Positions 2,193 to 62,408 of a stretch of DNA of 64,000 bases are shown one piece after another. The notes beneath the pieces are model-generated. The model searched no databases. It was not told the origin of the DNA and saw only the letters and a list, made by a program, of their open reading frames with translations. A program made the position numbers and the translations under genes. The stretch is from Bacilli bacterium. Lineage in GTDB: Bacteria > Bacillota > Bacilli > Alicyclobacillales > SLC66. Within the stretch, counting starts at the first letter, position 1. Each line of letters begins with the position of its first letter. The stretch is taken from NCBI GenBank assembly GCA_013044175.1, contig JABEUY010000055.1, forward strand, positions 30,228-94,227, in the 5' to 3' direction.

Positions 2193-3488
2193 ATGAATGA
2201 TGAACGATTAGATTTACATTTAGGGACTTTTCGCCGTGTCGTGAGAAGTTTGTTGACCAGTGTTGAAATCGCTTTACTTTCTCGAAATCCTGAAGGAAAA
2301 TTGTTAATGCATGTCGGTGTAGAAGCGATGTTCGGCTTTTCGATTGATCAGTTTCGCGCAGATCCTTACTTCTTACATCGTCGAATCGTTTTTGATGAAA
2401 CTTCGCTTAGCGTGGTGAATAAGGATACACCATGGTGGTCTAAGGATCTTCGAGAACCCTTTTATCATGAGGTGCAATATCGGCATGCAAGTGGTGAAGT
2501 GCGCTGGATGCATTATCATGTTTTGCCCGTCTTTGATGTAGATCAACAGCTCATTCGACATGATGCGATTTTTTTTGATATCACAAAGGAAAAAAATGAA
2601 TCAAAACTGCTGTCACAAAGTCAAATTCGCTTTCAAACCTTGGTTGAAGGGTTACCTGATGGCGTCATGCTCGCTCGGGATGGTTACATCACCTACATCA
2701 ATCCGAAAGCTGTTGCACTTTGGCAAGGTAATAGCGCCGATGAATTTTTAGGGCGTAAAGTTGATCATTTATTTTTGCAGCAAAACGTCTTACCCCAAGA
2801 TTCATCCGTTGTTGTGCATACGGAGAATTCGCAATTTTCCTGGTGCTTGCGAAAAGATAAAAGCCAATTTCTCGGCGAAATTATCACCTGTGCGATCGAA
2901 GAGGAGCAAGGCAAGGCTACGATGTTTATCGTTCGCGATTGTACGGAAGAAGTGGAATTAAAAAGACGGCTTCATAAACTCGCGTATGAAGATACAGTAA
3001 CCCAATTAGCGAATCGCCGTCGATTCTTTGAGGCGGTTGGCGAAGCGATTTCACAAGGTGACGTGAATCAGCAACTTGCTGTGGTTTATCTCGATCTCGA
3101 CGGATTCAAAATGATCAACGATCAATTTGGTCATGCGACAGGGGATCGGATCTTGATGCAAGTCGCCGAACGATTAAGGCAAATTTATTATAACAACCCA
3201 TTAATAGCGCGTCTTGGTGGCGATGAATTTGCTTATTTATTCACCTATCAAAAGCAAATGGGAAACGACATTGATAAAAGTATCGACGAAATCTTACAAT
3301 TATTCCAATATCCTTTTACCGTTCGGGAAAACGTCATATCTCTCGTTGCGAGCATTGGTGTTGCGAAATATCCGCAGGATGCGCAAGACCAGGATGAACT
3401 GATCACACATGCTGATCAAGCGATGTATACCGCTAAATTGCAAGGTGGAAATCAAATTGCCTTTTATAAAATTCGTTTGACGGAATGA
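2193..3488 (+). CDS. PAS-domain diguanylate cyclase (GGDEF)
   Basis: C-terminal GGDEF domain with intact RLGGDEFAYLF and DLDGFKMINDQFGH. PAS-like segments lie upstream. Confidence 0.85.
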   Translation: MNDERLDLHLGTFRRVVRSLLTSVEIALLSRNPEGKLLMHVGVEAMFGFSIDQFRADPYFLHRRIVFDETSLSVVNKDTPWWSKDLREPFYHEVQYRHASGEVRWMHYHVLPVFDVDQQLIRHDAIFFDITKEKNESKLLSQSQIRFQTLVEGLPDGVMLARDGYITYINPKAVALWQGNSADEFLGRKVDHLFLQQNVLPQDSSVVVHTENSQFSWCLRKDKSQFLGEIITCAIEEEQGKATMFIVRDCTEEVELKRRLHKLAYEDTVTQLANRRRFFEAVGEAISQGDVNQQLAVVYLDLDGFKMINDQFGHATGDRILMQVAERLRQIYYNNPLIARLGGDEFAYLFTYQKQMGNDIDKSIDEILQLFQYPFTVRENVISLVASIGVAKYPQDAQDQDELITHADQAMYTAKLQGGNQIAFYKIRLTE

Positions 3489-4330: not shown

Positions 4331-5644
4331 ATGAAGGACAAAGAAGGTAACGTATCTTTTGCACGAAAGATTGCTTATAGTTCGAATCAATTTGGCATTA
4401 ATATTTTATGGCAAGCTTTCAACACGATCGCCGTCTTTTATTATGTGACACAAGTTAAAGTTTCGGGAACGGTATTGTCCGATGGGATGATTGTGTATGG
4501 CATTGTCAATGCGTTTTTAAATGTGATGGCAGGTTATTTAAGTGACCGCACGCATACTCGCTTTGGGCGACGGATTCCTTATATCGCATTCATGAGTTTG
4601 CCACTTTGTTTAGCTTTCGTTTTACTTTTCACACCAATGACGACGAATGCTTATTGGGCAACCTTCTATTTCTTCGTTCTCGTTTTTCTTTTTGATTTCT
4701 TTTTTACTTTTGTTGCGCTTAACATGGGCGCGCTGTATCCGGAAATGTACCGTTCTTTGAAAGATCGATCGAACGTTTCAGCTTGGCAACAATTATTTGG
4801 GATCCTTGGCATGATCATCGGTGTTGCTCTTGTGAAATCATTGGGGCAAACTCTCGGCTATCCGATGATGGCGTTAGCTTTTGCAACCATTGGTGGCCTC
4901 ACGTTATATGTGTCGCTTTGGGGGAGTTTTGAGGACAAATCCTATCAGACGAGCCCTTTTGATTGGAAAGATGCTTTTGTCGAAACTTTTTCTAATCGCA
5001 AATTTCTGCGCTTTATCACCGCGAATTTTATGATTCAATTGGCAACGACGATGTTTACAACATTATCTTCCTATTTTACGCAGTATGTCGTGATCATGAA
5101 TGGCATCACAGGTTCTTTATTTTTGGGGAGTATTTTTATCGTAGCGATTCCTATGTCCTTTATCTGGGCAAAAATCGCGCAACGAATCGCTACTTCCGTG
5201 TTGACCATGGTCAGTGCTATTTTATTTGTGATCGATAATCTGTTTTTTCTCGTCGTTCGAACGCCTATGGAAGTAATCATCACAGGGGCGGTTATGGGTA
5301 TTCCTATAGCCGGATTTATGGTCTTATTAAACATTTTACTGGCTGATGTGATCGATGAAGATGAGCGCCATACTCATCGTCGTCGCGAAGGCATGTACTA
5401 CGGAGTAAATGGCTTTTTGGTCCGCTTGGGAATGTCTGTGCAGTACGCGATTATGGCGATCTATTTTTGGTCTAGCGGCTTTAATTCGCATCTTTCTGTT
5501 CAAGGTTCAAGTGCCATCCTAGGTATTCGTCTGATGATGGGTCTTTTACCTATCGTCTTTATGGGTTTTGCAACGTTTGCTTTACTTCGATATCGTTCGG
5601 TTCGAAGTGAGCGTCGTGCTGCTGCTCTGTCGAAATCATCTTAA
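4331..5644 (+). CDS. MFS transporter, glycoside-pentoside-hexuronide (GPH) like
   Basis: 437 aa with about 12 TM segments. GPH-type loop motif YLSDRTHTRFGRRIPY. Confidence 0.65.
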   Translation: MKDKEGNVSFARKIAYSSNQFGINILWQAFNTIAVFYYVTQVKVSGTVLSDGMIVYGIVNAFLNVMAGYLSDRTHTRFGRRIPYIAFMSLPLCLAFVLLFTPMTTNAYWATFYFFVLVFLFDFFFTFVALNMGALYPEMYRSLKDRSNVSAWQQLFGILGMIIGVALVKSLGQTLGYPMMALAFATIGGLTLYVSLWGSFEDKSYQTSPFDWKDAFVETFSNRKFLRFITANFMIQLATTMFTTLSSYFTQYVVIMNGITGSLFLGSIFIVAIPMSFIWAKIAQRIATSVLTMVSAILFVIDNLFFLVVRTPMEVIITGAVMGIPIAGFMVLLNILLADVIDEDERHTHRRREGMYYGVNGFLVRLGMSVQYAIMAIYFWSSGFNSHLSVQGSSAILGIRLMMGLLPIVFMGFATFALLRYRSVRSERRAAALSKSS

Positions 5645-6967: not shown

Positions 6968-7081
6968 TCGTAGAAGTTAACGCGCGGGACAGATAATCGT
7001 TACGATTTCGTTACGGATCGTGAAAAGAACTAAAATTCCTTGGATGGTCGATATTTCCTTTGCAAATCACGATTATATTGC

Positions 7082-7111
7082 TTGACTTTTACTCTCCCAT
7101 CTAGGTATACT
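7082..7111 (+). promoter_or_regulatory. sigma-A type promoter of the tRNA operon
   Basis: TTGACT, 18 nt spacer, TATACT, about 45 nt before tRNA-Trp. Confidence 0.5.
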
Positions 7112-7154
7112 ATCGAAGTGTCATCTGTGGTGCAGGGAATTGAGTAAGATACAC

Positions 7155-7230
7155 AGGGGCGTAGTTCAGCTGGTAGAACGGCGGTCTCCAAAACCGCATG
7201 TCGTGGGTTCGAATCCTGCCGCCCCTGCCA
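7155..7230 (+). tRNA. tRNA-Trp (CCA)
   Basis: AGGGGCG/CGCCCCT acceptor stem, anticodon loop CTCCAAA, GGTTCGAATCC, GCCA end. Confidence 0.9.
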
Positions 7231-7251
7231 GTCGTCTGATTCAATTAATAT

Positions 7252-7328
7252 GGTGGGCGTGGCGAAGTGGTCAACGCACCGGATTGTGGCTCCGGCACTC
7301 GTGGGTTCGAACCCCATCGCTCACCCCA
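7252..7328 (+). tRNA. tRNA-His (GTG) with G-1
   Basis: Extra 5' G pairs with C73. Anticodon loop ATTGTGG; GGTTCGAACCC T-loop. Confidence 0.9.
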
Positions 7329-7333
7329 TATGA

Positions 7334-7408
7334 TGGGGAGTCGCCAAGTGGTAAGGCAACGGACTTTGACTCCGTTATTCGTAGGTTCGATCCCTACCTC
7401 CCCAGCCA
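7334..7408 (+). tRNA. tRNA-Gln (TTG)
   Basis: TGGGGAG/CTCCCCA acceptor stem, anticodon loop CTTTGAC, GCCA end. Confidence 0.9.
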
Positions 7409-7412
7409 CTAT

Positions 7413-7488
7413 GAGCCATTAGCTCAGCTGGTAGAGCACTTGACTTTTAATCAAGGTGTCCCGCGTTCGAGTCGCGGATGGCTCACCA
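7413..7488 (+). tRNA. tRNA-Lys (TTT)
   Basis: GAGCCAT/ATGGCTC acceptor stem, anticodon loop CTTTTAA. Confidence 0.9.
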
Positions 7489-7497
7489 CTAACCTTT

Positions 7498-7580
7498 GCG
7501 GGTGTGGCGGAATTGGCAGACGCACCAGACTTAGGATCTGGCGGGCAACCGTGGGGGTTCGAGTCCCTTCACCCGCACCA
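7498..7580 (+). tRNA. tRNA-Leu (TAG), long variable arm
   Basis: GCGGGTG/CACCCGC acceptor stem, anticodon loop CTTAGGA. Confidence 0.9.
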
Positions 7581-7602
7581 TTTTTGATTAACATAACCCT
7601 AT

Positions 7603-7679
7603 CGGAGTTTAGCGCAGTTTGGTAGCGCGCCTGCCTTGGGAGCAGGAGGTCACAGGTTCGAATCCTGTAACTCCGACCA
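7603..7679 (+). tRNA. tRNA-Pro (TGG)
   Basis: CGGAGTT/AACTCCG acceptor stem, anticodon loop CTTGGGA, GGTTCGAATCC. Confidence 0.9.
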
Positions 7680-7759: not shown

Positions 7760-8941
7760 TCACGAATTATCTCGATGCAGAATGGCGGCTATCTTCTCTG
7801 TGGCTTCCTGTTGCATGTTTTCAGTGACATGGCTGTAGGTGTCTGCGGTCATGGCTATAGACGCATGCCCTAGTCGCTCACTAACGATTTTAAGCGGGAC
7901 GTTGGCTTGCAGGAGCAGTGTGGCATGTGTATGTCTAAGATCATGAAATGATACATGGGGCAGTTTGAGCTTGGTGATTGCAAGCCGCATATCTCTTGCT
8001 AAGGTCATAGGGTCAATTGGTGTACCATCTTTATGAGACATTACGTAGGTAGAGTCAGTGGTGATAAGCTGCCTCTGTCGCCAGTCTTGCAAGCGCGTGA
8101 GCAGTTCTGTATCAACCGGGATAGACCGGATACTTCCCGCAGTTTTTGGATCACCAACAATATCGCCTATTTTTGCCCTTCGTTGTCGTGATCGCACAAC
8201 CCGCAAAATGCCCCGCTCAAAATCCACGTCAGCCCACGTCAGCCCGCAAATTTCACCTCGGCGAAGCCCTGTTTGTAACGCCAGTGTCACGCCAATATAA
8301 GACGCTGGATGCTTGGTTTTTATGTAATCCAGCAGTGCATGGGCTTGCGCTACATCTAATACTGTACGTTTTTCAATGCGACCGTTTGGTGGATCAACAC
8401 GCACCATAGGACTAGTCACTATAGTGCCCCGCTTGACCGCTCGATTTAAGGCGGTTCGCAACACGCGATGTATACGATGGACGCTGGACGGAGCCAGACC
8501 ACGGTCCTGCAATGCGTGATACATAGTCTCGATCTGTTCATGGGTTAGTGCATCCAGATTGATAGCACCAATATAGGGAGTCATCAAATCCGCAGAATAC
8601 TTGTACGTTTCATGCGTTCGAGGCGCAACAGTAGGTTCGATCGCCGTCAGCCATTCAGTCAAGTACGCCTCGATCGTCAGCGGCGGCGTAACCGCTTGAA
8701 CCGCAGTGCTACCCTCCTTGATTGCCGCCAGTGCGCCCATCAACGCGTCTTGCGCATCCGCTTTGAGCGCAAATCCAGACCGTCGAATCTGCGGATAATT
8801 CCCTTTGACTGGATCATAAGGCAGATTGATAATGTAAGACCATTTATCGCCACGCTTGCGAACCGTTCCAGTAGCCAAAAAATCGCCTCCCACAAAATAT
8901 TTTTTTACTTCCTCAAACTTTTTTGTTTCCAGATCATCCAC
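7760..8941 (-). CDS. int: tyrosine site-specific integrase
   Basis: 393 aa. Catalytic-region motifs LRRGEICGL, HDLRHTHATLLL and LGHASIAMTADTYSH. Adjacent to tRNA-Pro. Confidence 0.9.
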   Translation of the reverse strand: MDDLETKKFEEVKKYFVGGDFLATGTVRKRGDKWSYIINLPYDPVKGNYPQIRRSGFALKADAQDALMGALAAIKEGSTAVQAVTPPLTIEAYLTEWLTAIEPTVAPRTHETYKYSADLMTPYIGAINLDALTHEQIETMYHALQDRGLAPSSVHRIHRVLRTALNRAVKRGTIVTSPMVRVDPPNGRIEKRTVLDVAQAHALLDYIKTKHPASYIGVTLALQTGLRRGEICGLTWADVDFERGILRVVRSRQRRAKIGDIVGDPKTAGSIRSIPVDTELLTRLQDWRQRQLITTDSTYVMSHKDGTPIDPMTLARDMRLAITKLKLPHVSFHDLRHTHATLLLQANVPLKIVSERLGHASIAMTADTYSHVTENMQQEATEKIAAILHRDNS

Positions 8942-12245: not shown

Positions 12246-13943
12246 ATGCCAGTGAATTGTAGGGTATGTCACCGCGTATTGCGTAACCCGGTGTCGATCA
12301 CGCTTGGGGTCGGTCCGGTGTGCGTGAAAAAAGTTCGAGCACAAGCGGCTACACTAATGGCACAGATGCAAGCCGAGCGTCCAAGTGGCACGACTTACGA
12401 GCAGATGTACGGATTGTCTGAACAAGAACTTACACTCTATGCCGAACGCGGCGCAAGGACTGCGTACACCGAACGCGCACGTCACGGCAGGTCGTCCAGA
12501 CCGAGCGCAACCGCAGTCGAGATACCAACCGATCCGACTCGCAGAGGCTCGCAACCGATAGTTGTCGAGTGGATTGACGAAGACACAGCCACCGTTATCT
12601 CATCCGGTAGAGGCTACAACCACATAGCCAGTGCTAATACCTGCAACTGTCGCGAGTTTCGAAGTGCGGTGAGGCATCCAGAGCAATTCCTGCATGGTTG
12701 CCGCCACATGCAAGCGTACCGCCAAGCCTTAGCCATTGTTCAAAACCGCCCAGTTCCTGCACCACAACCAATGGAACCGTTTAACGAGTCCAGACCTGCG
12801 GTTCAGAACAATACGCAAGCAGTCGCTGTCCCAAATTTTACGGCGATTGATGTCACGGATGACATTGCCAGAACACAGATTCTGTCGGTCTGGAAAACGA
12901 ATCGATCATGGGACGGTATTCGAATGACAGAGGATCAAGCCGCCTACGATTCACTGATGTCATCGGCAGAGGCAGAATGGGAATATGTTACAGATGGTTC
13001 GATTTTGGGTGGTACAGGAAATACGTTTGGCGTGGAAATTGAAATGGAGTTTGAGTCTAGTGGTGCTTGGGATCGCGTGGCGAGGGATCTGTACAACGAA
13101 GGGCTGTCACAGTACAGCGAACGCGTGGGCTATCACACCGCTGGCGGTATGTGGATGCCTACACGTGATGGATCGCTGACAAATGGTGGGTTGGAAATTG
13201 TCTCACCAATCTTGCAAGACCGCCCGGAAGATTGGGAGCAGCTACGCAGAGTACTGGAAATCGCGAAGTATCACGGCGCAGTGGTCAACGGCAATACAGG
13301 CTGTCACACAAATATTGGTAGCGGTCCGGTCGATAGTCGAGCTTTCAGTTGGCAGAGATTGGCGAGAGCAGCACTGGGACACGAGGCGGCTTTGTATCGT
13401 ATGGGCGGCGCAGACAGTGAAAAATATCGCAGCGCGGGCACGGCAGGTGTACATCGTGGCACAGGTTACGTGCGCACGCTAGGCGATATCACATTTGGTG
13501 GGAATGCCACAATGGCTGAAATAAAATATCAGATCACAAAAGAGGATCACGCGACTTTGCTGAACGTGATGCACGATGGGCGAGTTGAATTTCGATCACC
13601 AAACGGGACGCTAGATGCGAGGCAGATTCAGGCAAATGTGGTAGTTGCCAACGCCATGATGCACCAAGCTGCAACCATCACAAACAGCAGTCCACTAGAC
13701 AACACGACACCGAAACTGTCAGATTACGCGAATCAGGTCGGCTATACGGCGGTACAAACTGCACGGCTAAAAGATGACTTACAGTGGGCTGCTCGTCACG
13801 GTCAGGATACCAGCACTTTGGAGCAGAATATTGCCAACCGCGAAGCCAAAGCCGAACTAGGATTCAGGCGTTTCTTGGATTTCTTGGGCAACCCGGTGGA
13901 CCGCAAGGCGGCTGCATGGCTTTACAAACGCGGATCAATCTAG
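12246..13943 (+). CDS. DUF6011-like Cys motif + SWIM zinc finger + Amidoligase_2-like (glutamine-synthetase-fold) domain fusion protein
   Basis: N-terminal CRVCHRVLRNPVSITLGVGPVC. SWIM motif CNCREF..GCRHMQAY. Amidoligase-like motifs GVEIEMEF, RDGSLTNGGLEIVSP and GCHTNIG. Confidence 0.6.
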   Translation: MPVNCRVCHRVLRNPVSITLGVGPVCVKKVRAQAATLMAQMQAERPSGTTYEQMYGLSEQELTLYAERGARTAYTERARHGRSSRPSATAVEIPTDPTRRGSQPIVVEWIDEDTATVISSGRGYNHIASANTCNCREFRSAVRHPEQFLHGCRHMQAYRQALAIVQNRPVPAPQPMEPFNESRPAVQNNTQAVAVPNFTAIDVTDDIARTQILSVWKTNRSWDGIRMTEDQAAYDSLMSSAEAEWEYVTDGSILGGTGNTFGVEIEMEFESSGAWDRVARDLYNEGLSQYSERVGYHTAGGMWMPTRDGSLTNGGLEIVSPILQDRPEDWEQLRRVLEIAKYHGAVVNGNTGCHTNIGSGPVDSRAFSWQRLARAALGHEAALYRMGGADSEKYRSAGTAGVHRGTGYVRTLGDITFGGNATMAEIKYQITKEDHATLLNVMHDGRVEFRSPNGTLDARQIQANVVVANAMMHQAATITNSSPLDNTTPKLSDYANQVGYTAVQTARLKDDLQWAARHGQDTSTLEQNIANREAKAELGFRRFLDFLGNPVDRKAAAWLYKRGSI

Positions 13944-20588: not shown

Positions 20589-21056
20589 ATGGGATTTTTG
20601 ACTTTACCGATTTACTACTTGGGGATGTTCCTATTTTCGTTGGCTGTCATCGTGCAGTTTACGGTTGGTGGCTTGGCGTTCGATCAGATGTGGACGAATA
20701 CAGCATTAAAGAACGCCACGAGTGCGGGCATCACGCAGGTGGTGGGTGGTGGCGGTGGCATTGGATCGGCGCAGGTGATTAACGTTGTTGATGCCGAGAA
20801 TATTGCCAATCAGGAATGGTCGATGCAGAATCAAGCATGGACACCAAGTGGTCAGCCCATTACCGCTACGTTTACACCGGGTGCAGTCAACAGCCTGACA
20901 CCTGCTGGATCGTATGACACTTTGACTGGAACGGCAGTGGTAGCAGTGCAAGAAAATGCCATAAATCATTTGATCGATACGTTTGGTAAGACCGTCAACA
21001 ACGGCGGGACGATTACGGACACGATCTCGTCCAGTCTGCCCGGAACGCTTTCCTAA
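20589..21056 (+). CDS. membrane-anchored hypothetical protein
   Basis: 155 aa with one N-terminal TM. GGGG RBS upstream. Confidence 0.45.
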   Translation: MGFLTLPIYYLGMFLFSLAVIVQFTVGGLAFDQMWTNTALKNATSAGITQVVGGGGGIGSAQVINVVDAENIANQEWSMQNQAWTPSGQPITATFTPGAVNSLTPAGSYDTLTGTAVVAVQENAINHLIDTFGKTVNNGGTITDTISSSLPGTLS

Positions 21057-22380
21057 CCTCCAGCCCCCCCCTCTGCCATCAACGACAGAAGGGGGGGGGG
21101 CTTTTTCTCGTATCTATGTGGCTGGACATGAGTAATCATACACAACCAGCTCAATAGATCCAAGTTTTCCGACCTTCTACCCTCCGAAAACTGGAAACTG
21201 TAGACTAGTCCGTCCTAGTATTTAGGACAGAAAGCTAGTACATGGTTCTATGTTCTACAATCTAGGATATGGGAACTGTAGACTAGTCCGTCCTAGTATT
21301 TAGGATATGTAGGATATGCTTGTCATAGTTACGTCAGGGGTTGAGGGCTTTACGTCACCCTTTGAAATCGCCTCTACGCCAGTAACAGTGCGGGTTGCGG
21401 CGTTTTACGTCACACGTCAGGGATAGCTTTATTCCTATACTACATATATCCCTTCTTTTCTTCTCTCCTCTATAGTAGCAAATAGAAGAGAGAAGGGTGA
21501 CGTATTGACGAAGCCACGTCACTACTGAAAAAATGGTATGACTTAGCCCTGACGTACCCCTGACTTAGAGCCTCTAGCCCTGACGTGCTTCCTAAATACG
21601 AACCTTCTATGGAATTGTATGCCATACTCACCTACCCAAGCCTGACTCACCTACCCCATTCCAACCACACCACATAGCCACATGACCTCACAGGATGCCT
21701 CCAGAACGATTTGAAATGCGCCCGTGATAGTTAGTCGCGGCGGGCGGGTACAAACGTCCTGCGAGGCTGCTAGATGCCTTAAAATCGAAATGGCTGATTT
21801 TTGAGGGTTTATGTGAGAGGGGGTTTGGGGCTGTAGGGGGTTCTAGGTACGCGAGGATGCCCCTAGAACGATCTTAGAAGCACCGGGCAGATGATTGCCT
21901 ATGCCGGGTGCTCGAACGGCTTCAAGGCGATCATGGCGACTTTAAAAATAAACTTTGAGCCAGAAGCTGTCATTTTCCCCAGTACAGGCGTTTTTCGCGA
22001 TATCACAGGGGGTAACGCCATACTCGTATCCTCATCATAATATCGCCGCATGTCAGCGTCAAATGAGTTGTAACTCTTAATAATCAAGTCTAATCACATG
22101 AAAAATCTCAACTCTCCTTAAATCACCCAACTCTCACGAATCAACCGCTAATCGTTGGTAACGAACTCTAATCATCGTAACATCTTCTAATGAGCATAAA
22201 TCAAGCCGTTTTCCTATGTAAAATTCCAGTTATCAAGCGCACCGGAATTGGAAGTTTGTCGCCCACTTTGCAGTGTTGACGCGGGTTGACAGGCTTTTGA
22301 GCATGTTGTAGGCTATGAATGTAGACAAAAACAACTGGGAAAAGAGGGAACGAAGATTGTAGCTATTAAGTTAAAAAGAT
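21057..22380. repeat. noncoding origin-like region A (diverged inverted paralog of 61125..62408)
   Basis: Order of parts: terminator; two 35-mers 78 bp apart (21193..21227, 21271..21305) containing the palindrome GGACTAGTCC; a cluster of at least 9 TGACGT/ACGTCA; an AT-rich dyad; a TTGACA-17-TAGGCT promoter at about 22278. Confidence 0.7.
21064..21105 (+). terminator. intrinsic terminator with C8/G10 homopolymer stem
   Basis: CCCCCCCCTCTGCC..(loop)..GACAGAAGGGGGGGGGG followed by CTTTTT. Confidence 0.6.
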
Positions 22381-33687: not shown

Positions 33688-33704
33688 CACGCATTGAGAC
33701 TGAA

Positions 33705-33770
33705 AAATTTACGAGTTTGAGAGTCGCAAACCTATAAATGTCGGTTGCGCAATCTCAAACTCGTAAATTT
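33705..33770. promoter_or_regulatory. 18-bp perfect inverted repeat upstream of the parM-like gene (candidate centromere/operator or terminator)
   Basis: AAATTTACGAGTTTGAGA (33705..33722) pairs with TCTCAAACTCGTAAATTT (33753..33770). The 30-nt spacer contains an inner GCAAACC/GGTTGC stem. Confidence 0.5.
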
Positions 33771-33795
33771 ATGAGCTAAAACAGGAGGTCAGGAC

Positions 33796-34833
33796 ATGAT
33801 TATTGGACTAGATGCTGGATATGGGCACACAAAGTGGACAACAGATGGTGTGACTGTAAAAACAATTCCTTCGGTGGTATCGCCCACGAATCTGCAAGAC
33901 TTTGACAGCGACATGTTCGGCGGCGGTGGTGGGTATCGAGATTTGGCACTGGAGATTGCGGGGGCGCGATATTTGGTGGGTGAGTTTGCGTTGAGAGAAG
34001 ATGCCCAAGCAACACGCGTCATTAGTGCCGAGCGCACAAGTGGCGTGGAGTTTAAGGCGTTGGTGAGCACGGTTTTGCTATCGGAAATGTTGGATAAGGA
34101 CACAGTGGTCTGCACCGGACTGCCTTACAATGCGCCCAAGGAGGCACTGGCAGCCCTCGAATCTGAACTAAAGAATCTTCGATTGTCGGCAAACGGTATC
34201 TCCGGCGTGATAAAAGACAAGTTTTGGAGCGGCACGTTGAAAGATGTACACGTGTACAGACAGGCGCAAGCTGTGATTTTCGATGCCGTCTTCGCCTACC
34301 AAGGCAAAAAGATTGTCCCTGTACGCGATCAGGAACTGTTAGAAGTCGCAGGTACAAGGGTTGCAGTGGTTGATATTGGCTACAAGACAACGGATGTCAT
34401 TGTCTGCGAATTGAATCCAGAATTTAGGGTTATCAAAGAGTTGAGCTTTACAGTCTCACACGCGGTTTCCAGCGTTGGCAAGCACCTGCAAGAGGACTAC
34501 AAACGCATCACCAGAAATGGTGAGAGCGCACTGGACGCGAGGCGTTTGGATCAAGTGATCATTGGTGGCAAAATCCCGGATGCTGGTAAGGTGCTGGACA
34601 TGTCGGTCGAACGTGATCAAGCCACTAAGGTGGTAGGTCGCCAAATTATGAATCAGGTTTTTGAGAAGTGGGGACAAGCCCTTAGCACCATCCAAGTGGT
34701 CTATTTGGGCGGTGGCGGCGGTGAGCTTTTTGGGGATTACCTGACACGCAATCTGCACCCCAATGTTTATAAGATCAAAGATGCACAAGGTGCGAATGCG
34801 CGTGGCTACTTCAAAATGCAGCAATTCATGTAG
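33796..34833 (+). CDS. parM: ParM/StbA-like actin-fold ATPase
   Basis: MIIGLDAGYGHTKW, VAVVDIGYKTTDV and VYLGGGGGELF (actin-fold phosphate and adenosine motifs). Confidence 0.75.
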   Translation: MIIGLDAGYGHTKWTTDGVTVKTIPSVVSPTNLQDFDSDMFGGGGGYRDLALEIAGARYLVGEFALREDAQATRVISAERTSGVEFKALVSTVLLSEMLDKDTVVCTGLPYNAPKEALAALESELKNLRLSANGISGVIKDKFWSGTLKDVHVYRQAQAVIFDAVFAYQGKKIVPVRDQELLEVAGTRVAVVDIGYKTTDVIVCELNPEFRVIKELSFTVSHAVSSVGKHLQEDYKRITRNGESALDARRLDQVIIGGKIPDAGKVLDMSVERDQATKVVGRQIMNQVFEKWGQALSTIQVVYLGGGGGELFGDYLTRNLHPNVYKIKDAQGANARGYFKMQQFM

Positions 34834-55060: not shown

Positions 55061-55106
55061 CAATTTGTCCCCCACGTCCCTTCTCTAAATGAGAGGGGGT
55101 TTTTTC
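55061..55106 (+). promoter_or_regulatory. ICE intercistronic box-hairpin module, copy 16
   Basis: Box CAATTTGTCCCCCAC; stem CCCTTCTC/GAGAGGGGG; TTTTTT; ATG 55107. Confidence 0.7.
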
Positions 55107-57710
55107 ATGTCCGAAAAATGGGAATTTGGGAAGATCAAGACCATTCCAGACTGGATGCAGCGGTTGAAAGATCGACCTAGCAAGTCGAATACCGCAGACA
55201 CAAACGTTTCATGGGTACGCATCATTCCGTTTGCTGGACAAAAGCATGATGCCGACAAGTTGCCATCAAAACTTGGTGGCTTGGGTGGCGAGGTCCATTG
55301 GCGATTCTGCAAAGATGGTGCGGGCAAGATCAGTGTGTATGCAGGGTATCAGTCTGCCGATGCGCTGCGTAGGGCACTAGAACAACGTTTAACCGATGCC
55401 GACCTTCAAGCCACCAATGAGCCGCCGACCTACGAAGAGAAATTCGTCAACCGGGTTGGTGAGCTTGGCGGCGTTTTGAATGATAAGGCAAAACTAGAAT
55501 CGATTCTGGACGCGCTCGAAAATGACACGTATTTGGACATCGTTTTCGAACAACGCCCGGACCACGAATTCAAAAACGCACTCAAAAATCGCGGCGGTAC
55601 TGCAAAAAGCGACAAGTCTCACATGAGTGACGCGGCAGACGCTTGGAAGGAACTGTTATTTATGGACGGTAAGACCAAGCCTAAGACAGCCGCCAAGGGG
55701 CAAGCACCTGCGGAGTCAAACCCTGTCGATAAGGATCGAGCCAAGCAGATCAATGACCTGCTGGCTGAAAGCACCAACTATTTCCGTGTGTCGATCAAGC
55801 TTGGGGCAGCGCACTCCAAGCACATTCAGACGATTTTTACCGAACTTAACAGTCAATTTAAGCATCGTCACCGCCTTAGTCTGTCCGACGAGGCAAAGAG
55901 CACACTTTGGAAAAAAGGTAGCGCGGAAGGGCTGTGGCGTGAAGCAGAGTTGGCGGTTTTGGTCGCGCTGCCTGACATGACCCACACGCAGATGGCGCGA
56001 TCCGTCACGCACATGAAGCCGGGCGAACAGACATTGAATGACGATCAGTTGACAGATGGCATTGCCGTTGGTCGATTGATCCATCCAGTCAAGTCGCCGC
56101 GACTCGTCAAGATACCAACCAAACAATTTTTGCGCCATTTTTTCATGGGTGGCAAAAACGGTTCCGGGAAGTCCAGTACCGCAGTGCAAATGATTCAATC
56201 CTTGTTGGACGAATGGGGTGAGAATCCTGATTTAGCACCGGGCTTTACGTACATTGACCCGGCAGGATCGACACTCACTATTGTCCTCAATCGGTTGTTA
56301 AAGCTGGAACAGCAGGGTGTCCGTATTCCATGGGAAAAGGTGCATTACATCGACATGACACCCACATCACAGTACCCGGTGGGCTTGAATCTGCTTTACC
56401 ATGAACAAGGCGAGGGTGTGTCTGCCGTGGCATCCGGTGCGCTAGACGTGATCAAATCAGCCTTTGGCGGGGATGCCATTTTTACTGAACGCCTAATGGA
56501 AAACGGCATGATGACCCTGCTGTACGACACACATCCGCACACGATCTTAGGCTTGACCAGTATTTTACAGTACCCTGCCATGCGTGAGCACATTGACATC
56601 TTGGACCCGCTGGTGCAAGAGTTTTGGGAGACAACTGGGAATGACCTGAAACCGAAAGACCTCGATCCGCTGCTGAATCGGTTGCGCCCGTTACTGATGA
56701 ATCCTGCAATGCGCCGCATTTTTGGGCAGCAGGACTGGACACTAGACATCCTCAAATGGATGGACGAAGGACACATCGTTTTGGTCAACGTGTTAAACCT
56801 CGAACCAAAAAACATGGGGCTGGTTGGTGGTCAATTCTTGATGCGATATCACGCCACCGCCAAAACGCGTGAACCGGACATTTCCAAGCCTCACATCCTG
56901 ATGATTGACGAGGCACATAATGTCCGGGTTCCAATTCTCGAAAAGGTGATTGCCGAAGATCGCAAGTTTGGGTTGAGCCTTGGACTGATCACGCAATTCC
57001 CGGAACAGTTTGATGGATTGCTGCTAAAGTCGATATCGGAGAATATGGGCACATTTTTGACTTGCACGGTAGGTCCGAGTTCCGCATCCGTCATGTCCAA
57101 AATGATGAATGGCGCATTTGCAGGTGGCATACTTCAAGGTTTGCCGACGAGCCGTGTAGCGGTTTACACGAGCATCGATGGAGAGCCGCTGTCATTCACC
57201 GTCAAGTCTGACCCGCCTGTGATTTATCGTCCTACTGGTGAGCTTGCCCGGTACGAAGATGCAGCCGCGATGCGGGACGCGCAGGGCTGGGCAAAGGCAA
57301 AAGCGGAGGCATTGTCTAGTCGTGATGGCAAGAGCAGCGAGGCTGTGGACCAAGAGATCGCTGCATATTTCGAGTGGTTGAAGCAGTTTAAGGATGTAGA
57401 CGAAGATGAGGACAAGCCAAACGGTAAGCCCTCGAAAGAGGTCAAGGTCTACAAGCCAACCGCCGATGAGCAAGTGGTTTTGGAAGGGCTATGCGCTCTC
57501 GTTGGTGATCGCGGTGGTTGGGAAGGGCGAACCAGTGAGTTGTTGACAGCGTTAGAGGACGTGCTGGACGCGGCGGTTTTGGAGGATTGGACAGCTAAAG
57601 TTCTAGGCGTGTTGTTGTCCAAAGCCGTGACATACCTCGCGGTGCATGGAATACAGGCAAACAGTGTGCGCAAAGAGAAGGGTACATTCTGGTCTTTCCA
57701 AAGTTCGTAA
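55107..57710 (+). CDS. T4SS coupling-protein-like P-loop ATPase (VirD4/TraD/TraG-like) without N-terminal TM
   Basis: Walker A is GGKNGSGKSST and Walker B is ILMIDEAHN, plus GLSLGLITQFPEQF. The C-terminal 87 aa is shared with the next gene. Confidence 0.6.
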   Translation: MSEKWEFGKIKTIPDWMQRLKDRPSKSNTADTNVSWVRIIPFAGQKHDADKLPSKLGGLGGEVHWRFCKDGAGKISVYAGYQSADALRRALEQRLTDADLQATNEPPTYEEKFVNRVGELGGVLNDKAKLESILDALENDTYLDIVFEQRPDHEFKNALKNRGGTAKSDKSHMSDAADAWKELLFMDGKTKPKTAAKGQAPAESNPVDKDRAKQINDLLAESTNYFRVSIKLGAAHSKHIQTIFTELNSQFKHRHRLSLSDEAKSTLWKKGSAEGLWREAELAVLVALPDMTHTQMARSVTHMKPGEQTLNDDQLTDGIAVGRLIHPVKSPRLVKIPTKQFLRHFFMGGKNGSGKSSTAVQMIQSLLDEWGENPDLAPGFTYIDPAGSTLTIVLNRLLKLEQQGVRIPWEKVHYIDMTPTSQYPVGLNLLYHEQGEGVSAVASGALDVIKSAFGGDAIFTERLMENGMMTLLYDTHPHTILGLTSILQYPAMREHIDILDPLVQEFWETTGNDLKPKDLDPLLNRLRPLLMNPAMRRIFGQQDWTLDILKWMDEGHIVLVNVLNLEPKNMGLVGGQFLMRYHATAKTREPDISKPHILMIDEAHNVRVPILEKVIAEDRKFGLSLGLITQFPEQFDGLLLKSISENMGTFLTCTVGPSSASVMSKMMNGAFAGGILQGLPTSRVAVYTSIDGEPLSFTVKSDPPVIYRPTGELARYEDAAAMRDAQGWAKAKAEALSSRDGKSSEAVDQEIAAYFEWLKQFKDVDEDEDKPNGKPSKEVKVYKPTADEQVVLEGLCALVGDRGGWEGRTSELLTALEDVLDAAVLEDWTAKVLGVLLSKAVTYLAVHGIQANSVRKEKGTFWSFQSS

Positions 57711-57754: not shown

Positions 57755-58561
57755 TTGCTCGAAATGAAACAGCAGTTGTGGAGTTGCCTACGTCAAAAAT
57801 GGGTAAGTGGGACGCTAGAGGAATGGGTACGACAGGATTATGTTCTGGTATTGGTCAATGAGTACGGCTATGCGTTAGAACAGATGGCAGAAGAGTTTGT
57901 CGTGAACGGTGCAGGTGCTGGACAGGCAAGGGCTGATCTGATCGTTTGGTCATCCGTAGAGGATAAACAGCAGGGCAACAGACCACTGTTTATCATTGAG
58001 TGTAAAGGCACTGATGATGAGATTGAGCCTTCTACATTTCAGCAAGGTATGCGTTATGCACGGTTCGTCAATGCCCCTTACTTTGTAGCTAGAAACCTGT
58101 TTGAGACACGGTTTTTTGAGATCGACCACAGCAAAATGTATCCAGAGTACGAGGAAATCGGAAGACTGGAAAACACGGCGAATCCCGACTACTCTAATTA
58201 TTTCGCGATGCACAAAGCATTAAGTCGCGTAGCTTACACAGAAAATCCACCGATACCTGCTGGGTTTAGTTGTGATAGACCCAGAATGAGCGATAAGATT
58301 TATCGACCGACTAAAAATGAACTCGTTATGCTTGAAGCAGTCTGTACTCTAGTAGAGAGCCAAGCAGGTTGGGAAGGGCGCACGAGCGCGTTGTTGACCG
58401 CATTAGAGGACGTGCTGGATGCGGAAGTGCTGGAAGATTGGACAGCCAAGAATTTAGGTGTGCTGCTGGCTAAAGTCGTGACATACCTTGCAACACGCGG
58501 TATTCAGGCGCAAAACACACGAGCAAGGATGGGCAATGTTTGGTCTTTCCGTCAAATTTAA
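57755..58561 (+). CDS. HsdR-N-terminal-like PD-(D/E)xK nuclease domain protein carrying the coupling-protein C-terminal module
   Basis: ARADLIVWSS..PLFIIECKGT..QQGMRYA pattern. The C-terminal 87 aa is 64 percent identical (56/87, hand count) to 57447..57707. Confidence 0.55.
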   Translation: MLEMKQQLWSCLRQKWVSGTLEEWVRQDYVLVLVNEYGYALEQMAEEFVVNGAGAGQARADLIVWSSVEDKQQGNRPLFIIECKGTDDEIEPSTFQQGMRYARFVNAPYFVARNLFETRFFEIDHSKMYPEYEEIGRLENTANPDYSNYFAMHKALSRVAYTENPPIPAGFSCDRPRMSDKIYRPTKNELVMLEAVCTLVESQAGWEGRTSALLTALEDVLDAEVLEDWTAKNLGVLLAKVVTYLATRGIQAQNTRARMGNVWSFRQI

Positions 58562-58776
58562 TTTCCAGTTTTGCTACCTTTCAAAATTGCAAGAGTTAGT
58601 AGCAAAAGGCAAGGTGCAAACCTTTGTCCTCATTGCAAACTTGCAAACTTGCAATAGCTTTTACCGAATCGCCTATCACCCCCAAAACACCGGATCATCT
58701 TAGCGGATTTTCTGAAAAGTGAGTCCATGTGGTCATCAAAAACTGGAAAAAATCTCGAGATTTTAGCAACCAAGAG

Positions 58777-59160
58777 TACGAATCTGTACGAGTTTAGGAC
58801 AAAATGCCGAAGCCTCGCATCCATTCTAGGCTTGCGGACGATTTTTAAGGCAAAAAACTCGCATCTATGGTTCAGGGTATGTATGATTCTCGGCTACCCT
58901 GACCTAAGATGCGAGTTTTTTGATGTTGTATGTCGTGTCATGACTGAAAGAACAGAGGATTGTACGAAACTGAACGCATTGAGGACAAGGCGTTTTGGGG
59001 CTATTACGAAACTGTCCGCATTCAGGACACAAAAATGCTGTATGGCGTGTCACGGCTGAACGTTTGGGAATCTGTACGAGACTGAACGCGTTTAGGACAC
59101 GAAGATGCTGTACGCTGGGTCATGCCTGGAAGAGCGGAGGTCTGTACGAGCTTAGGAAAG
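58777..59160 (+). repeat. iteron-like array 1 (degenerate, about 5-6 units)
   Basis: Units of the form (G/T)TACGA(A/G)..(GAAC/GTCC)GC..TT.AGGACA. Two adjacent units are 42 bp apart (58961, 59003). Confidence 0.6.
58850..58921. terminator. long-stem hairpin family, copy d (operon-end punctuation)
   Basis: CAAAAAACTCGCATCT pairs with AGATGCGAGTTTTTTG (16 bp perfect), with a 40-nt loop containing an inner CAGGGTA/TACCCTG stem. Confidence 0.6.
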
Positions 59161-59221
59161 GTATAGGAACCTTAGCGGATAAGATGCTGGGATTATGAAG
59201 CTGCCCACATCTAGGCATAGA

Positions 59222-59267
59222 GGCAGAATAGCGGCAACCTGAATCACATGGTTGCCGCTATTCTGCC
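59222..59267. terminator. 18-bp perfect hairpin downstream of the minus-strand cassette
   Basis: GGCAGAATAGCGGCAACC, 10-nt loop, GGTTGCCGCTATTCTGCC. Lies 8 nt from the stop of 59275..59721. Confidence 0.6.
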
Positions 59268-59274
59268 GTTAAAG

Positions 59275-59721
59275 CTATTCTCGAACGCCTTGCCTAAGTG
59301 CTTGCATCCACGCAGGTGTATCCTGTTCTGCCTCCGGTTCCGGTTCCGGTTTGGCTGCTGCCTCCGGTGCTGCGGGCGGGATCATATCTGCTATGGATGC
59401 CTTGACAGCGGCTATGATCTTGGTTTCTACTGCGGTTAGTTTGTCCTCTATTGATCTATCAATTGTCAAGTCAAGAGTTTCTAAAATCGGATCCAACTCA
59501 TCGTGTATCAATCGTTTTACCTCATCTACACTCATGCCCTCGCTACCACGATTGCCCGCCTGTGCGTCATATTGTAGCTGTCTTAGCAGTAGCCCTCGCG
59601 CCCATTGTGAGGTCGAACCTGCTGGAATGGCGGCGATAAAATCCGTGTCCGTGTCATAGATTGGAATGTGGATCAAGCGAATACGTTTAGGTCGATCCGG
59701 TTTCTGCTTCGCGGTGCTCAT
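59275..59721 (-). CDS. hypothetical protein (Pro/Ala/Glu-rich C-terminus)
   Basis: 148 aa. Its start overlaps the stop of the upstream ASCH-like gene. Confidence 0.5.
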   Translation of the reverse strand: MSTAKQKPDRPKRIRLIHIPIYDTDTDFIAAIPAGSTSQWARGLLLRQLQYDAQAGNRGSEGMSVDEVKRLIHDELDPILETLDLTIDRSIEDKLTAVETKIIAAVKASIADMIPPAAPEAAAKPEPEPEAEQDTPAWMQALRQGVRE

Positions 59722-59981
59722 TAGTGTACGTCCTCCTCTAGTGGTGCGATTGACAAGGCTACATAGCCATCTGGTACATACGGTGCGCCTTGCAGGATGT
59801 GTGTTATCTCGCGGTAAACCTTGCGTCCGGTGTATGGCGATCTCTTGTGCGCATCGAATTCTTCCAAAACCAGCACATCACCGACTCGATACGGTTTGTC
59901 TGCGATTCGAATTTCGACTCGTTTACGGTCCTGTAAGACAGCCTCGAAATATTCTGTGGATAGTTTTAGTTTGCGAATCAT
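59721..59981 (-). CDS. ASCH/DUF3850-like domain protein
   Basis: MIRKLKLSTEYFEAVLQDRKRVEIRIADKPYRVGDVLVLEEF. Start set by GAAGGAGG and the minus-strand box module. Confidence 0.55.
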   Translation of the reverse strand: MIRKLKLSTEYFEAVLQDRKRVEIRIADKPYRVGDVLVLEEFDAHKRSPYTGRKVYREITHILQGAPYVPDGYVALSIAPLEEDVH

Positions 59982-60026
59982 GGGTGTGCCTCCTTCTATA
60001 TTCTGTGGGGGCTGTAGGACAATTTT
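59982..60026 (-). promoter_or_regulatory. ICE intercistronic box module, copy 18 (minus strand)
   Basis: The reverse complement reads AAAATTGTCCTACAGCCCCCACAGAATATAGAAGGAGGCACACCC followed by ATG. Confidence 0.55.
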
Positions 60027-60066
60027 TATGAATTTGAACATGTTACGGACTTAATATTTTGATCGG

Positions 60067-60356
60067 ATTACGAATTTGAACGAATTGCGGACATGGCTTT
60101 TGGGGGTGATTACGAATTCGAACACATTTAGGACATGGGTTTTTGCCTCGATTACGAATTTGAACGAGTTTAGGACATGGCGTTTTGGGGTTATTACGAA
60201 TTAGTCCGCATTATGGACATGGCATTTTGGGGTGATTACGAATTAGTCCCTAATGCGGACTAGCTCAAAACGTAAAAATGGACTAAATTACGAAAGTGTA
60301 CGAGTTACATACACGTCGATTTAGTCCGTTACGAAAATGTCCACATTCAGGACAGA
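60067..60356 (+). repeat. iteron array 2: five phased 42-bp units plus two degenerate units
   Basis: ATTACGAAtt.GAAC...TT..GGACATGG..TTTTGGGG units start at 60067, 60109, 60151, 60193 and 60235, with degenerate units at 60287 and about 60328. Confidence 0.75.
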
Positions 60357-60363
60357 TTGGTGA

Positions 60364-60567
60364 TTATTGCAGCTTGCGCAGGGCTTGCGAGTACACTGCC
60401 CGGATCGTTGCGGGTGTCTCTTGCGACTCTTCGATGGCTTTTGCGATTTCGCGCCAGTCTTGGTTCTTGAAACGGCGAAACAGGACTTCCCTTTCGAGCG
60501 ACGATAAGGAACGGAACGCAGGATTTAACGTTGGATTTTCGAGCATATGAGGCAGCATATAGATCAA
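60364..60567 (-). CDS. small sigma-70 region-4 / LuxR-like HTH protein
   Basis: LSSLEREVLFRRFKNQDWREIAKAIEESQETPATIRAVYSQALRKL. Confidence 0.55.
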   Translation of the reverse strand: MIYMLPHMLENPTLNPAFRSLSSLEREVLFRRFKNQDWREIAKAIEESQETPATIRAVYSQALRKLQ

Positions 60568-61124: not shown

Positions 61125-62408
61125 CGTTCATAGCCCCCTGATTTCCATTTATTTTTGTCTACAAACCTATCCTACTGCATAGCAAAACCCCTGTCAACCC
61201 GCGCCAGCACTGCAAACAGGGCGACAAGTTTCCAATTATCAAGCGCACCGAAACTGGAAGTTTTCAAAGGATATGACCCAATCTTTGAAGTGTTTCAACG
61301 TTTGACGATGATTCTTTGAAAGTTTCAAGGATTACGAGGTTTTTGTTGAAATGAATCTGTGTGGTATGCTGTCCATGAGCATAGGTACTGGAAATAATGA
61401 TAGCCCCAGACTCAAAAATAAATTTTTTGGGCAGCCTGAATGCCTCTTGCGACTCTCCGCCTTCAAAGCGGAGACTGTATTTTCCAGTAGAGCAGGAAGT
61501 CCCTACTGCCTCAATGCCTCCGAATCGGTTCGAGCACCCGGCTTGGGCAATCATCTGCCGCCCACGCCCGCAACGCTTCTAGGGGCATCCTCGCGCACGA
61601 GGGATGCCCTACAGCCCCAAACCCGCATTCTTATAAACGCTCAAAAATCAGCCATTTCGATTTTAAGGCATCTAGCAGCCTCGTAGAACGTTTTGACCTT
61701 CGTTCTGCGACTAACTATCACGGGCTTGTTTCAAATCGTTCTGGAGGCATCCTGTGAGGTCATGGGGGTATGCGGTGAGGTCAGGATGGGGGTGACGTGG
61801 TTGGCTTGGGAAGGTATCGATGGCATAGAATCCCATAGAAGGTTCATATTTAGGGTGTAGGTCCAGCCTTAACGCCAAAGTCCAGAGTACGTCCAGGTTT
61901 TTCCCGACCATTTTGTCAGTGCTGACGCGGCTTCACCCATACGTCCAATATATATTCAATTTGCTACTATGAAAGAAGAAAGAGAAGAGTGGTATTATAG
62001 TATAGGAATTAGGCATCGTTGGACGCAGGACGTAAAACCCTTCAACCCGCGCCACTATTGCGAGGAGACCCTTTTCAGTCTTGGACGTAAGCCCTCAACC
62101 TTGGACGTAAACATGGCAAGTCTGCACTACAGATTCCAAATGCTAGGACGGACTAGTATACAGTTTCCATCTACTAGATTGTAGGGTATGGAACCATGTA
62201 CTGGCTTTCTATCCTAAATATTATGACGGACTAGTATACAGTTTCCATATCCTAGATTGTAGGCTATGTAACTAAAGCTGTCCTACTAATACCAAATGCT
62301 AGGACGGACTAGTCTACAGTTTCCAGTTTTCAGAGGTGTTATGTACGAGATTTAGGCATGAAAAAGCCCCTTCTGCACCGGGCAGAGGGGGTGGGGGCGG
62401 GGAGGTAG
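61125..62408. repeat. noncoding origin-like region B (diverged inverted paralog of 21057..22380)
   Basis: On the reverse complement the order of parts matches region A: terminator; three 33-35-mers exactly 78 bp apart (62136..62168, 62212..62246, 62292..62324); a GGACGT/ACGTCC cluster; an AT-rich dyad; a TTGACA-17-TAGGAT promoter. Confidence 0.7.

Follow-up and report, generated by a model that had tools for sequence, protein, structure and literature searches.

Helically phased repeat arrays and a small orphan protein gene form a candidate cis-site/adaptor cassette in an integrated conjugative element of Bacillota

Same-orientation iteron arrays flank a gene in the oriR-repA-incA region of P1, and repeat arrays lie on both sides of the parAB operon in par2 of pB171. 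The pB171 arrays have been named parC1 and parC2 (PMC4270457). In F, sopC consists of 12 direct repeats of 43 bp (PMC3177203), and tetramers of TraM connect oriT with the coupling protein (PMC3159463). In R388, two sets of five 9-bp direct repeats, phased with an 11-bp period, stand at the promoter of StbA next to oriT; StbA binds them and has effects on stability as well as on conjugation (PMC3098194; bioRxiv 10.1101/2022.04.29.490116). The locus described here occupies 58776-60354 of a 64,000-nucleotide stretch of contig JABEUY010000055.1 (positions 30,228 to 94,227 of the forward strand; the window), and carries two arrays of a 26-bp unit on either side of a two-gene operon. It lies within a conjugative element of ~59 kb, which is integrated beside tRNA-Pro in an Alicyclobacillaceae-related genome and is not a plasmid. 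The arrays are read here as clusters of predicted sites at which the 148-aa protein, encoded between them, would bind, with a probability of roughly 0.55. The core features are the following.

58776..59218, plus strand: array 1, with four full units, one internally deleted and one degenerate unit, an interleaved second repeat and a stem-loop
59275..59721, minus strand: gene of the 148-aa protein, the proposed array-binding adaptor
59721..59981, minus strand: gene of a DUF3850/ASCH protein of 86 aa (PF12961, E = 8.6e-21; phrog_986, E = 1.6e-26)
60026..60354, plus strand: array 2, conserved and helically phased, with eight units of 26 bp ahead of the ASCH/148-aa operon

The 26-bp unit, TTACGAA-N2-TGnnCG-N2-TT-N-AGGACA, was recovered 12 times by a repeat finder (26-nt core), always on one strand, between 58776 and 60354. 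The consensus of the aligned units is ATTACGAAttTG(a/t)(a/c)CGnnTTnAGGACA, with tGGC-TTTTGGGG-TGA after it in array 2. All 12 units agree at nine positions, the spacers being variable, and an internal dyad, TGTCC-N7-GGACA, is present in several units (59004, 60194, 60329). A window search with the degenerate pattern TACGAANNTGNNCNNNTTNNGGACA, having 17 fixed positions and up to 3 mismatches allowed, gave 14 matches against 0.57 expected, a number attained in none of 100 shuffles; 12 of the 14 are real plus-strand units.

Good matches to the unit are confined to 58776-60354 in the 2.54-Mb, 156-contig assembly, and matches of at least 14 bits to its position weight matrix (PWM) occur in the window at the array locus only. 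Public metagenome and viral collections contain the exact unit pattern only as single scattered chance matches, one per contig, and a blastn search of plasmid and phage collections with 58600-60400 returned no match. The 148-aa protein would therefore have one large target, like centromere or relaxosome adaptors. A satellite or miniature inverted-repeat transposable element, which the original prediction had named as one of the findings that would undo it, is rejected, since the copies of the unit stand at one genome locus and elsewhere only single matches are scattered. Clustered regularly interspaced short palindromic repeats (CRISPR) are rejected as well, because the 16-nt inter-unit segments (GGC-TTTTGGGG-TGA) are conserved and the units are variable.

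The units of array 2 start at 60026 (degenerate), 60068, 60110, 60152, 60194, 60236, 60288, and 60329, with five spacings of 42 bp followed by 52 and 41 bp. The 42-bp spacing was recognised in the original prediction and is borne out by Tandem Repeats Finder (TRF), which finds 4.3 copies with this period (77% matches) at 60066-60244; the start had been placed at 60067, and the array in fact begins ~40 bp further left, at 60026.

Conservation of this arrangement was examined in relatives of the 148-aa protein. Phmmer found 11 remote homologues among 1.84e9 representative proteins, and homologues were detected by six-frame search in 4 of 60 related genomes, or in 5 of 64 genomes of the order with the host genome included. 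Such a rare and sporadic distribution is what mobile DNA would be expected to show. A word-index homologue search with the protein returned only itself, and a protein-pattern scan of JGI metagenome contigs returned no relatives. Three further features of the window are needed for the comparison.

55089..57710, plus strand: gene of an 873-aa coupling-protein-like ATPase, the putative type IV coupling protein (T4CP), with weak TraG-D_C and AAA_22 matches
58586..58655, plus strand: TTGCAA(A/C/G/T) cluster, including a TTGCAAAC tandem of 2.8 copies at 58633-58654 (TRF)
59222..59267, minus strand: hairpin with a perfect 18-bp stem, 8 nt past the stop of the 148-aa gene

Wherever sequence upstream of a homologue is available, it shows one layout on one strand, in which a T4CP homologue is followed by a TTGCAAC/TGCCAC cluster, a hairpin, an array of 300-600 bp, and the 148-aa homologue. 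It is seen in G001:C30 (L009), G015 (L013), G001:C4 (L011), G022 (L012), and G016 (L010), as well as on metagenome contigs L016-19, L020-21, and L025. Synteny of the cassette with the T4CP gene and the TTGCAAC-type cluster holds at 8 independent loci, and the adjacent T4CP homologues have 44-65% identity. Arrays of the same type persist upstream of 148-aa homologues that are only 30-58% identical, and the closest relatives share the unit type of the window (TTACGTATATGTACGATTTGAGGAAA in L009, TTACGAATATGTACGATTGAAGGATT in L013). In Sulfoacidibacillus thermotolerans Y002 (G016), a 63-bp tandem array of 8.1 copies with 89% matches follows right after the T4CP gene and cluster (L010 2734-3240, contig44), and cargo genes lie between this array and the 148-aa homologue. 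Its 63-bp unit holds CTACGGTGAACTTTTGTGC...TTTTGG, like the unit of the window, and its period equals six helical turns.

The array and the protein have been exchanged together. L016 and L020 have 91% identical DNA over the whole T4CP gene and 177 bp downstream, and the homology ends where the arrays begin. The C-terminal modules of the two T4CPs are 93% identical and the two 148-aa homologues 43%, and the arrays are of different types, TTACGAA...TGCACACG in L016 and TTCTGAAAA...CCGTA...TTGCCGAA in L020. The array thus travels with the 148-aa gene and is not specified by the C-terminal module of the T4CP.

Array type also co-varies with the N-terminal segment of the protein. Proteins with R-x-(R/M/K)-x-(I/L)-H pair with (T/C)ACG...TGyAC(A)CG units (window, L009, L013, L016, L025, and L023), and those with K-V-K-x-L-Y and a PTAxGQW loop pair with TCTGA...CCGTA...TTCCGA units (L020 and L011). 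A GSTSQW-type turn is found only in the four closest members (window, L009, L013, and L016). For P0005, the second type was predicted from its KVKMLY sequence, and its 1.1-kb contig (L022) has at least five TCTGA...CCGTA...TTCCGA units upstream of the gene. Such co-variation is what an N-terminal segment that reads DNA sequence would produce.

Spacings in the upstream arrays are 43, 54, 52, 53, and 54 bp in L013, 42, 190, and 52 bp in L016, 43 and 51 bp in L025, and seven times 63 bp in L010. At a 10.5-bp period, 14 non-redundant spacings of the conserved upstream arrays have a resultant length of 0.86 and a mean phase of 6 degrees. Whole-turn spacings place the units on one DNA face, as expected for cooperative binding of an oligomer. 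These data also bear on a non-functional origin of the repeats, by recent slippage or duplication in a noncoding spacer with no bound protein. Units 2-5 of array 2, with a mutual identity of 72-86%, are alike enough for recent duplicates, and array 1, in which one unit is internally deleted, resembles a decaying copy. Such an origin is nevertheless highly improbable, as arrays of the same type persist beside such distant homologues, helical phase is kept between relatives' arrays whose spacer sequences have diverged, and the nine core positions are invariant where the spacers vary.

Array 1 has full units at 58776, 58962, 59004, and 59074, an internally deleted unit at 59144, and a degenerate unit at 59193, in agreement with the 5-6 looser units originally described. 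Its spacings (186, 42, 70, and 70 bp) are not whole helical turns, the 70-bp spacing being 240 degrees out of phase. Helical phasing, which the original prediction had seen in the 42-bp spacing as four helical turns, thus holds for array 2 only. A second repeat of 44-46 nt is interleaved with the units in three copies, and a stem-loop with 21-bp arms lies at 58851-58922. A 67-nt stretch with two units shares 82% identity with units 4-5 of array 2, which gives array 1 the look of a recent partial duplicate, lineage-specific and out of phase. It may aid looping or pairing, or may be decaying. Relatives have a single array upstream of the homologue and no downstream counterpart of array 1. Thus, the bracketing of the operon by two arrays, on which the original prediction laid weight, is present here and is not a conserved design.

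The cassette of the window stands in inverted orientation to the T4CP gene. A short sequence immediately to the left of array 1, ATCACCCCCAAAA at 58675-58687, matches the spacer TTTTGGGGGTGAT of array 2 (60098-60110) perfectly as its reverse complement. It may be a remnant of an ancestral array of opposite orientation, which would fit the inversion.

The hairpin at 59222-59267, noticed already at first reading, has a fold of -48.2 kcal/mol (z = -6.2). It has no U-tract and the terminator scan made no call there; the operon probably has its 3' end or terminator at this hairpin.

The 148-aa protein defines a small, rare, previously unannotated family. The 12-sequence alignment shows a conserved basic N-terminal module (residues ~9-50), KPxR(V/I)xxIH(V/I)PIYxxDxxILxxLPPxxxxQWARxLILRQLQ, followed by a variable helical middle, an acidic Pro/Glu-rich linker (PEPEPE), and an invariant C-terminal (I/L)PxW motif. 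The AlphaFold2 (AF2) model made with this alignment has an extended segment at 1-25, helices at 26-31 and 39-57, a long helix at 65-113, disorder at 114-136, and a helix at 137-147. The long helix may drive oligomerisation in such a structure. The order of secondary structure elements (extended, short helix, turn, long helix), together with the G-S-T-S turn, is compatible with a ribbon-helix-helix (RHH) fold.

The ASCH gene is translationally coupled to the 148-aa gene through a TAATG overlap. It is missing from the cassettes of all relatives, where unrelated small open reading frames lie between the array and the homologue (L020) or upstream of the array (L011). On this comparison the ASCH gene is dispensable, lineage-specific cargo. 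The description of the flanked genes as an ASCH/DUF3850-like protein and a 148-aa protein of no recognised family, neither of them a known Rep or ParB, has held. A box-like AATTGTCCTACAGCCCCCAC precedes the ASCH gene, and the 148-aa homologues of L009, L013, and L016 have TTCCCAC boxes ahead of them.

In the proposed mechanism, oligomers of the 148-aa protein would bind the 26-bp composite units cooperatively. The units of the conserved upstream array, being whole turns apart, would present themselves on one DNA face, and an extended nucleoprotein complex would form over ~330 bp, the span of array 2. Such a complex would probably repress expression of its own operon. Its main role would be that of a cis-acting handle, in which the invariant C-terminal helix recruits a partner machine to the excised element. 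A handle rather than a plain operator is suggested by the single large target, the helical phasing, the oligomerisation-type helix, and the conserved C-terminal peptide on a flexible acidic tether.

Another candidate binder is encoded directly upstream of array 2.

60364..60567, minus strand: gene of a 67-aa protein with a weak sigma-70 region-4-like helix-turn-helix (HTH) match (PF04545, E = 0.0015, below the curated cutoff)

Either the 67-aa HTH protein or the 148-aa protein could tightly repress its own small operon, and the repeats would then be an operator array with no structural, partition, or transfer role. Self-repression is common among small plasmid regulators, array 2 lies directly upstream of the operon, its degenerate first unit (60026) being ~45-70 bp from the start of the ASCH gene, and the PWM matches are restricted to the array locus. 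Still, 8-12 sites over 330-1600 bp far exceed the needs of autoregulation, strict helical phasing is retained across diverged arrays, the conserved PxW helix on its flexible acidic linker suggests a protein partner, and relatives keep the placement beside the T4CP gene. Their arrays do not have the 67-aa gene as a neighbour: the interval from the T4CP gene to the array holds no counterpart in L009, L013, or L016, and the 163-aa and 67-aa genes of the window, looked for around the cassette of L025, do not recur there. A role as operator only is thus rather unlikely.

The element as a whole shows where the cassette is placed. Its host is placed near Sulfoacidibacillus (Alicyclobacillaceae, Bacillota) by relatives. 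A tRNA cluster (7155-7679) is followed by a tyrosine integrase gene on the minus strand (7760-8941). The plus-strand block begins with genes of an SNF2 helicase, a CpaF/VirB11-type ATPase with an intein, and T2SSF-like proteins, continues with a ParM/Alp-family actin (33796-34833), TcpE, a VirB4-like AAA_10 protein, a VirB6/TrbL-like protein, and SLT, and ends with CpaE/ParA-like and CpaB-like proteins, the T4CP, and an HSDR_N_2 protein. The CpaE/ParA-like ATPase gene sits among secretion genes. Past the window end, genes of a DUF5906 helicase, a Prim-Pol, and an SSB-like protein are encoded on the minus strand, followed by insertion sequence (IS) elements and host genes. The array locus is the point of convergence of the plus-strand transfer block and the minus-strand replication block.

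A module of ~50 nt, formed by AATTTGTCCCAC and a hairpin containing the ribosome-binding site, occurs in intergenic regions ahead of many plus-strand genes of the element (12201, 16789, 33194, 35508, 36409, 37461, 55062, and 57709).

The arrays could also be replication iterons or a copy-control site bound by an initiator, either the Prim-Pol/D5-type helicase module or the 148-aa protein as a small Rep, and serve as an origin or as an incA/incC-like site of titration and handcuffing, as in P1 or mini-F. The flanking of a gene by same-orientation arrays recalls P1, and the locus is 2-4 kb from the DUF5906 helicase and Prim-Pol genes. Against this, neither flanked gene has a Rep-like domain, the arrays have no DnaA-box cluster (only two matches with 1 mismatch, both coding), and no AT-rich unwinding stretch is present, the lowest GC of any 100-bp window being 0.37. 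A separate origin-like 1.2-kb repeat region lies directly beside the helicase gene. In relatives the array and the 148-aa gene follow the T4CP gene, with cargo, IS, or leading-region genes but no replication genes downstream, and without a second flanking array. An iteron function is therefore improbable. The initial proposal of a plasmid iteron origin, control locus, or centromere survives in that a locus-specific array, of a sort typically bound by an element-encoded protein, resembles the arrays of centromeres or control loci, but the element is integrated at a tRNA and is not a plasmid, and the iteron origin is weakened by the lack of a Rep, of a DnaA-box cluster, and of an AT-rich stretch.

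The 1.2-kb noncoding region by the helicase gene (~61140-62400) has an inverted paralogue of ~82% identity at 21050-22350, and each copy holds 78-bp tandem repeats with TAGGACGGACTAGT. The 988-aa protein encoded upstream of the paralogous region was tested as a helicase paralogue, and is not one.

A function like that of StbA or TraM, tying element DNA to the transfer apparatus, is tentatively favoured for the handle, because the cassette sits just past the T4CP gene and the TTGCAAC cluster, on the border to leading-region or origin-like DNA. Only slightly less probable is a role in partition, ParR-like or motor-less, since the element has a replication module and an actin-like ParM homologue without an adjacent adaptor. 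The ParM-like gene (phrog_691, E = 6e-37; ALP_N and MreB-like_C domains) is 25 kb from the cassette, has no adjacent ParR, and is followed by an EAL gene. In G001, three T4CP genes and two cassettes are accompanied by one ParM-like match, which is mildly against an obligatory link to ParM.

An inverted repeat with 23-nt arms (33700-33775), each containing TTACGAGTTTGAGA, lies 25 bp upstream of the ParM-like gene, and TTACGAGTTTGAGA resembles the middle of the 26-bp unit. As a conserved second target of the 148-aa protein it was rejected, the repeat not being kept upstream of the ParM-like gene in G016, G015, G001, and G022.

The T4CP gene is separated from the cluster by one further gene in the window.

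57755..58561, plus strand: gene of an HSDR_N_2 (PD-(D/E)xK-type) protein of 268 aa (PF13588, E = 1.7e-20)

The HSDR_N_2 gene is missing from relatives. Its product and the T4CP have in common a C-terminal module of ~90 aa (57447-57707 in the T4CP, 58298-58558 in HSDR_N_2), with the last 100 aa 58% identical and the pattern W-x-G-(R/K)-T-S-x-LL...LG..L.....L...G......R...G..W. This module presumably resembles the C-terminal winged-helix of P4/D5-type primases. The T4CP homologue of L011 also matches TrwB_AAD_bind.

The TTGCAA(A/C/G/T) cluster at 58586-58655 is unique in the genome, and the TTGCAAAC tandem reported within it at first reading was found again by TRF. TTGCAAC or TGCCAC clusters stand directly after the T4CP stop in L009 (~7020-7140), L016 (~5350-5470), L020 (~2930-3060), L025 (~4474-4604), L012 (~7790-7880), and L010 (~3330-3440). 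L011 has a different cluster, three copies of ATATCCGTCAAG (12929-12961), and the most divergent T4CP C-terminal module (23-34% identity). From these pairings, the module appears to track the TTGCAAC cluster and not the array. The cluster may thus be the recognition site of the module, and would then be a candidate clt- or oriT-like site, which we take to be reminiscent of Streptomyces TraB/clt.

Downstream of the cassette the relatives differ. An IS605-family OrfB/TnpB gene lies directly after the 148-aa homologue in L016 (6632-7894), L017, L018, and L020 (4405-5490), restriction-modification, resolvase, or IS genes follow in L011 and L025, and an amidoligase/SWIM gene follows the cassette in G022. 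The cassette may, to judge from these neighbours, mark a hot spot of cargo insertion or the limit of the conserved backbone.

Several results weigh against the arrays being binding sites of the 148-aa protein and against the handle built on them. The protein, its family, and its N-terminal domain have no meaningful Pfam, PHROG, or PDB sequence match, and 12 family members compared with family profiles gave no match even at E up to 10. The AF2 model has only a moderate predicted local distance difference test score (pLDDT 65; 51, which is poor, from the single sequence), and a Foldseek search with it against PDB gave no match. An RHH fold, among those that the original prediction had suggested looking for, was matched neither by Foldseek nor by a search of PDB with the N-terminal profile, and hhalign of that profile with hand-entered CopG and ParG sequences was negative. 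Behind the co-variation stand ~10 proteins that lack phylogenetic independence. The stretch from array 2 to the ASCH gene gave no promoter call. No canonical relaxase or nic site was recognised in the element, so that a position next to oriT is itself deduced. Finally, in G001:C9 the T4CP gene and cluster are present and the cassette is missing in the 2.1 kb to the contig end; the cassette would thus be accessory or able to lie elsewhere. There, a RadC-like gene and TAGGACT repeats follow the cluster, the repeats (L107 1960-2210) in a place equivalent to that of the 1.2-kb repeat region.

The upkeep of Gram-positive integrative conjugative elements after excision, and their handover to the transfer machine, are poorly known, and the present element belongs to a family without a recognisable relaxase. 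The array and its small orphan protein offer a testable handle on these steps, through the apparent specificity code (R-x-R...H vs K-V-K...Y) and the natural swap on near-identical backbones. It is possible, although doubtful as yet, that the 148-aa family and its phased arrays represent a new, sequence-unrelated class of cis-site and adaptor for such elements. The cassette would then be a specificity module that links the element, once excised, with the transfer machine or an actin-like segregation motor via the PxW helix, that is exchanged between near-identical elements to escape incompatibility or cross-talk, and whose DNA specificity could be read from a six-residue N-terminal segment. 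Such cassettes may supply compact orthogonal DNA-protein tethering pairs. If the 148-aa protein is an autorepressor only, the finding is of modest interest.

Among the known systems, sopC is alike in having tandem units that each contain a short specific binding motif, at 43 bp compared with 42 bp here (PMC3177203). It is bound by SopB, a ParB-family HTH protein that acts with the SopA ATPase, whereas no ParB-family gene was found among the Pfam-scanned proteins of the present element.

ParR/parC resembles the cassette in that a small adaptor binds a centromere made of a repeat array and contacts a motor through its C-terminal peptide, and in that the arrays overlap the promoter and autoregulate. 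The cassette differs in being 25 kb from, rather than adjacent to, the ParM-like gene and in having no RHH similarity detected by hhalign with the hand-entered CopG and ParG sequences; the numbers of cassettes, T4CP genes, and ParM-like matches in G001 also depart from this model.

TraM with sbmA-C, PcfF of pCF10, and Aux1/Aux2 of pLS20 are small oligomeric proteins with an N-terminal DNA-binding domain and a helical oligomerisation region; TraM and the RHH accessory factors bind cooperatively to several sites just upstream of their own gene and are functionally tied to the coupling protein (PMC3159463, PMC6514445, PMC8829557). The 148-aa family has no detectable homology with them and no Pfam match of TraM, RHH, or MobC type, no relaxase or nic site was recognised in the present element, and at least one related element lacks the cassette. 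The polarity of the contact would also differ, as the tail of the F coupling protein inserts into TraM, whereas here the adaptor itself bears the conserved C-terminal peptide.

StbA with its stbDRs (R388; the related TraK in RP4) differs in sequence, the 148-aa family having no Pfam or PDB match to StbA/TraK, and in the geometry of its repeats, which are 9 bp long on an 11-bp period compared with 26-bp units on a 42-63-bp period here. The present cassette further belongs to a Gram-positive integrative element, has no adjacent stbB/stbC-like genes, and encodes a protein with a coiled-coil region and a PxW helix. The likeness lies in the arrangement: in both cases a small protein gene stands just downstream of phased direct-repeat arrays and no dedicated adjacent motor is required, and array 2 and the arrays of relatives lie directly upstream of the operon at whole-turn spacings, as the phased stbDR arrays do at the promoter of StbA.

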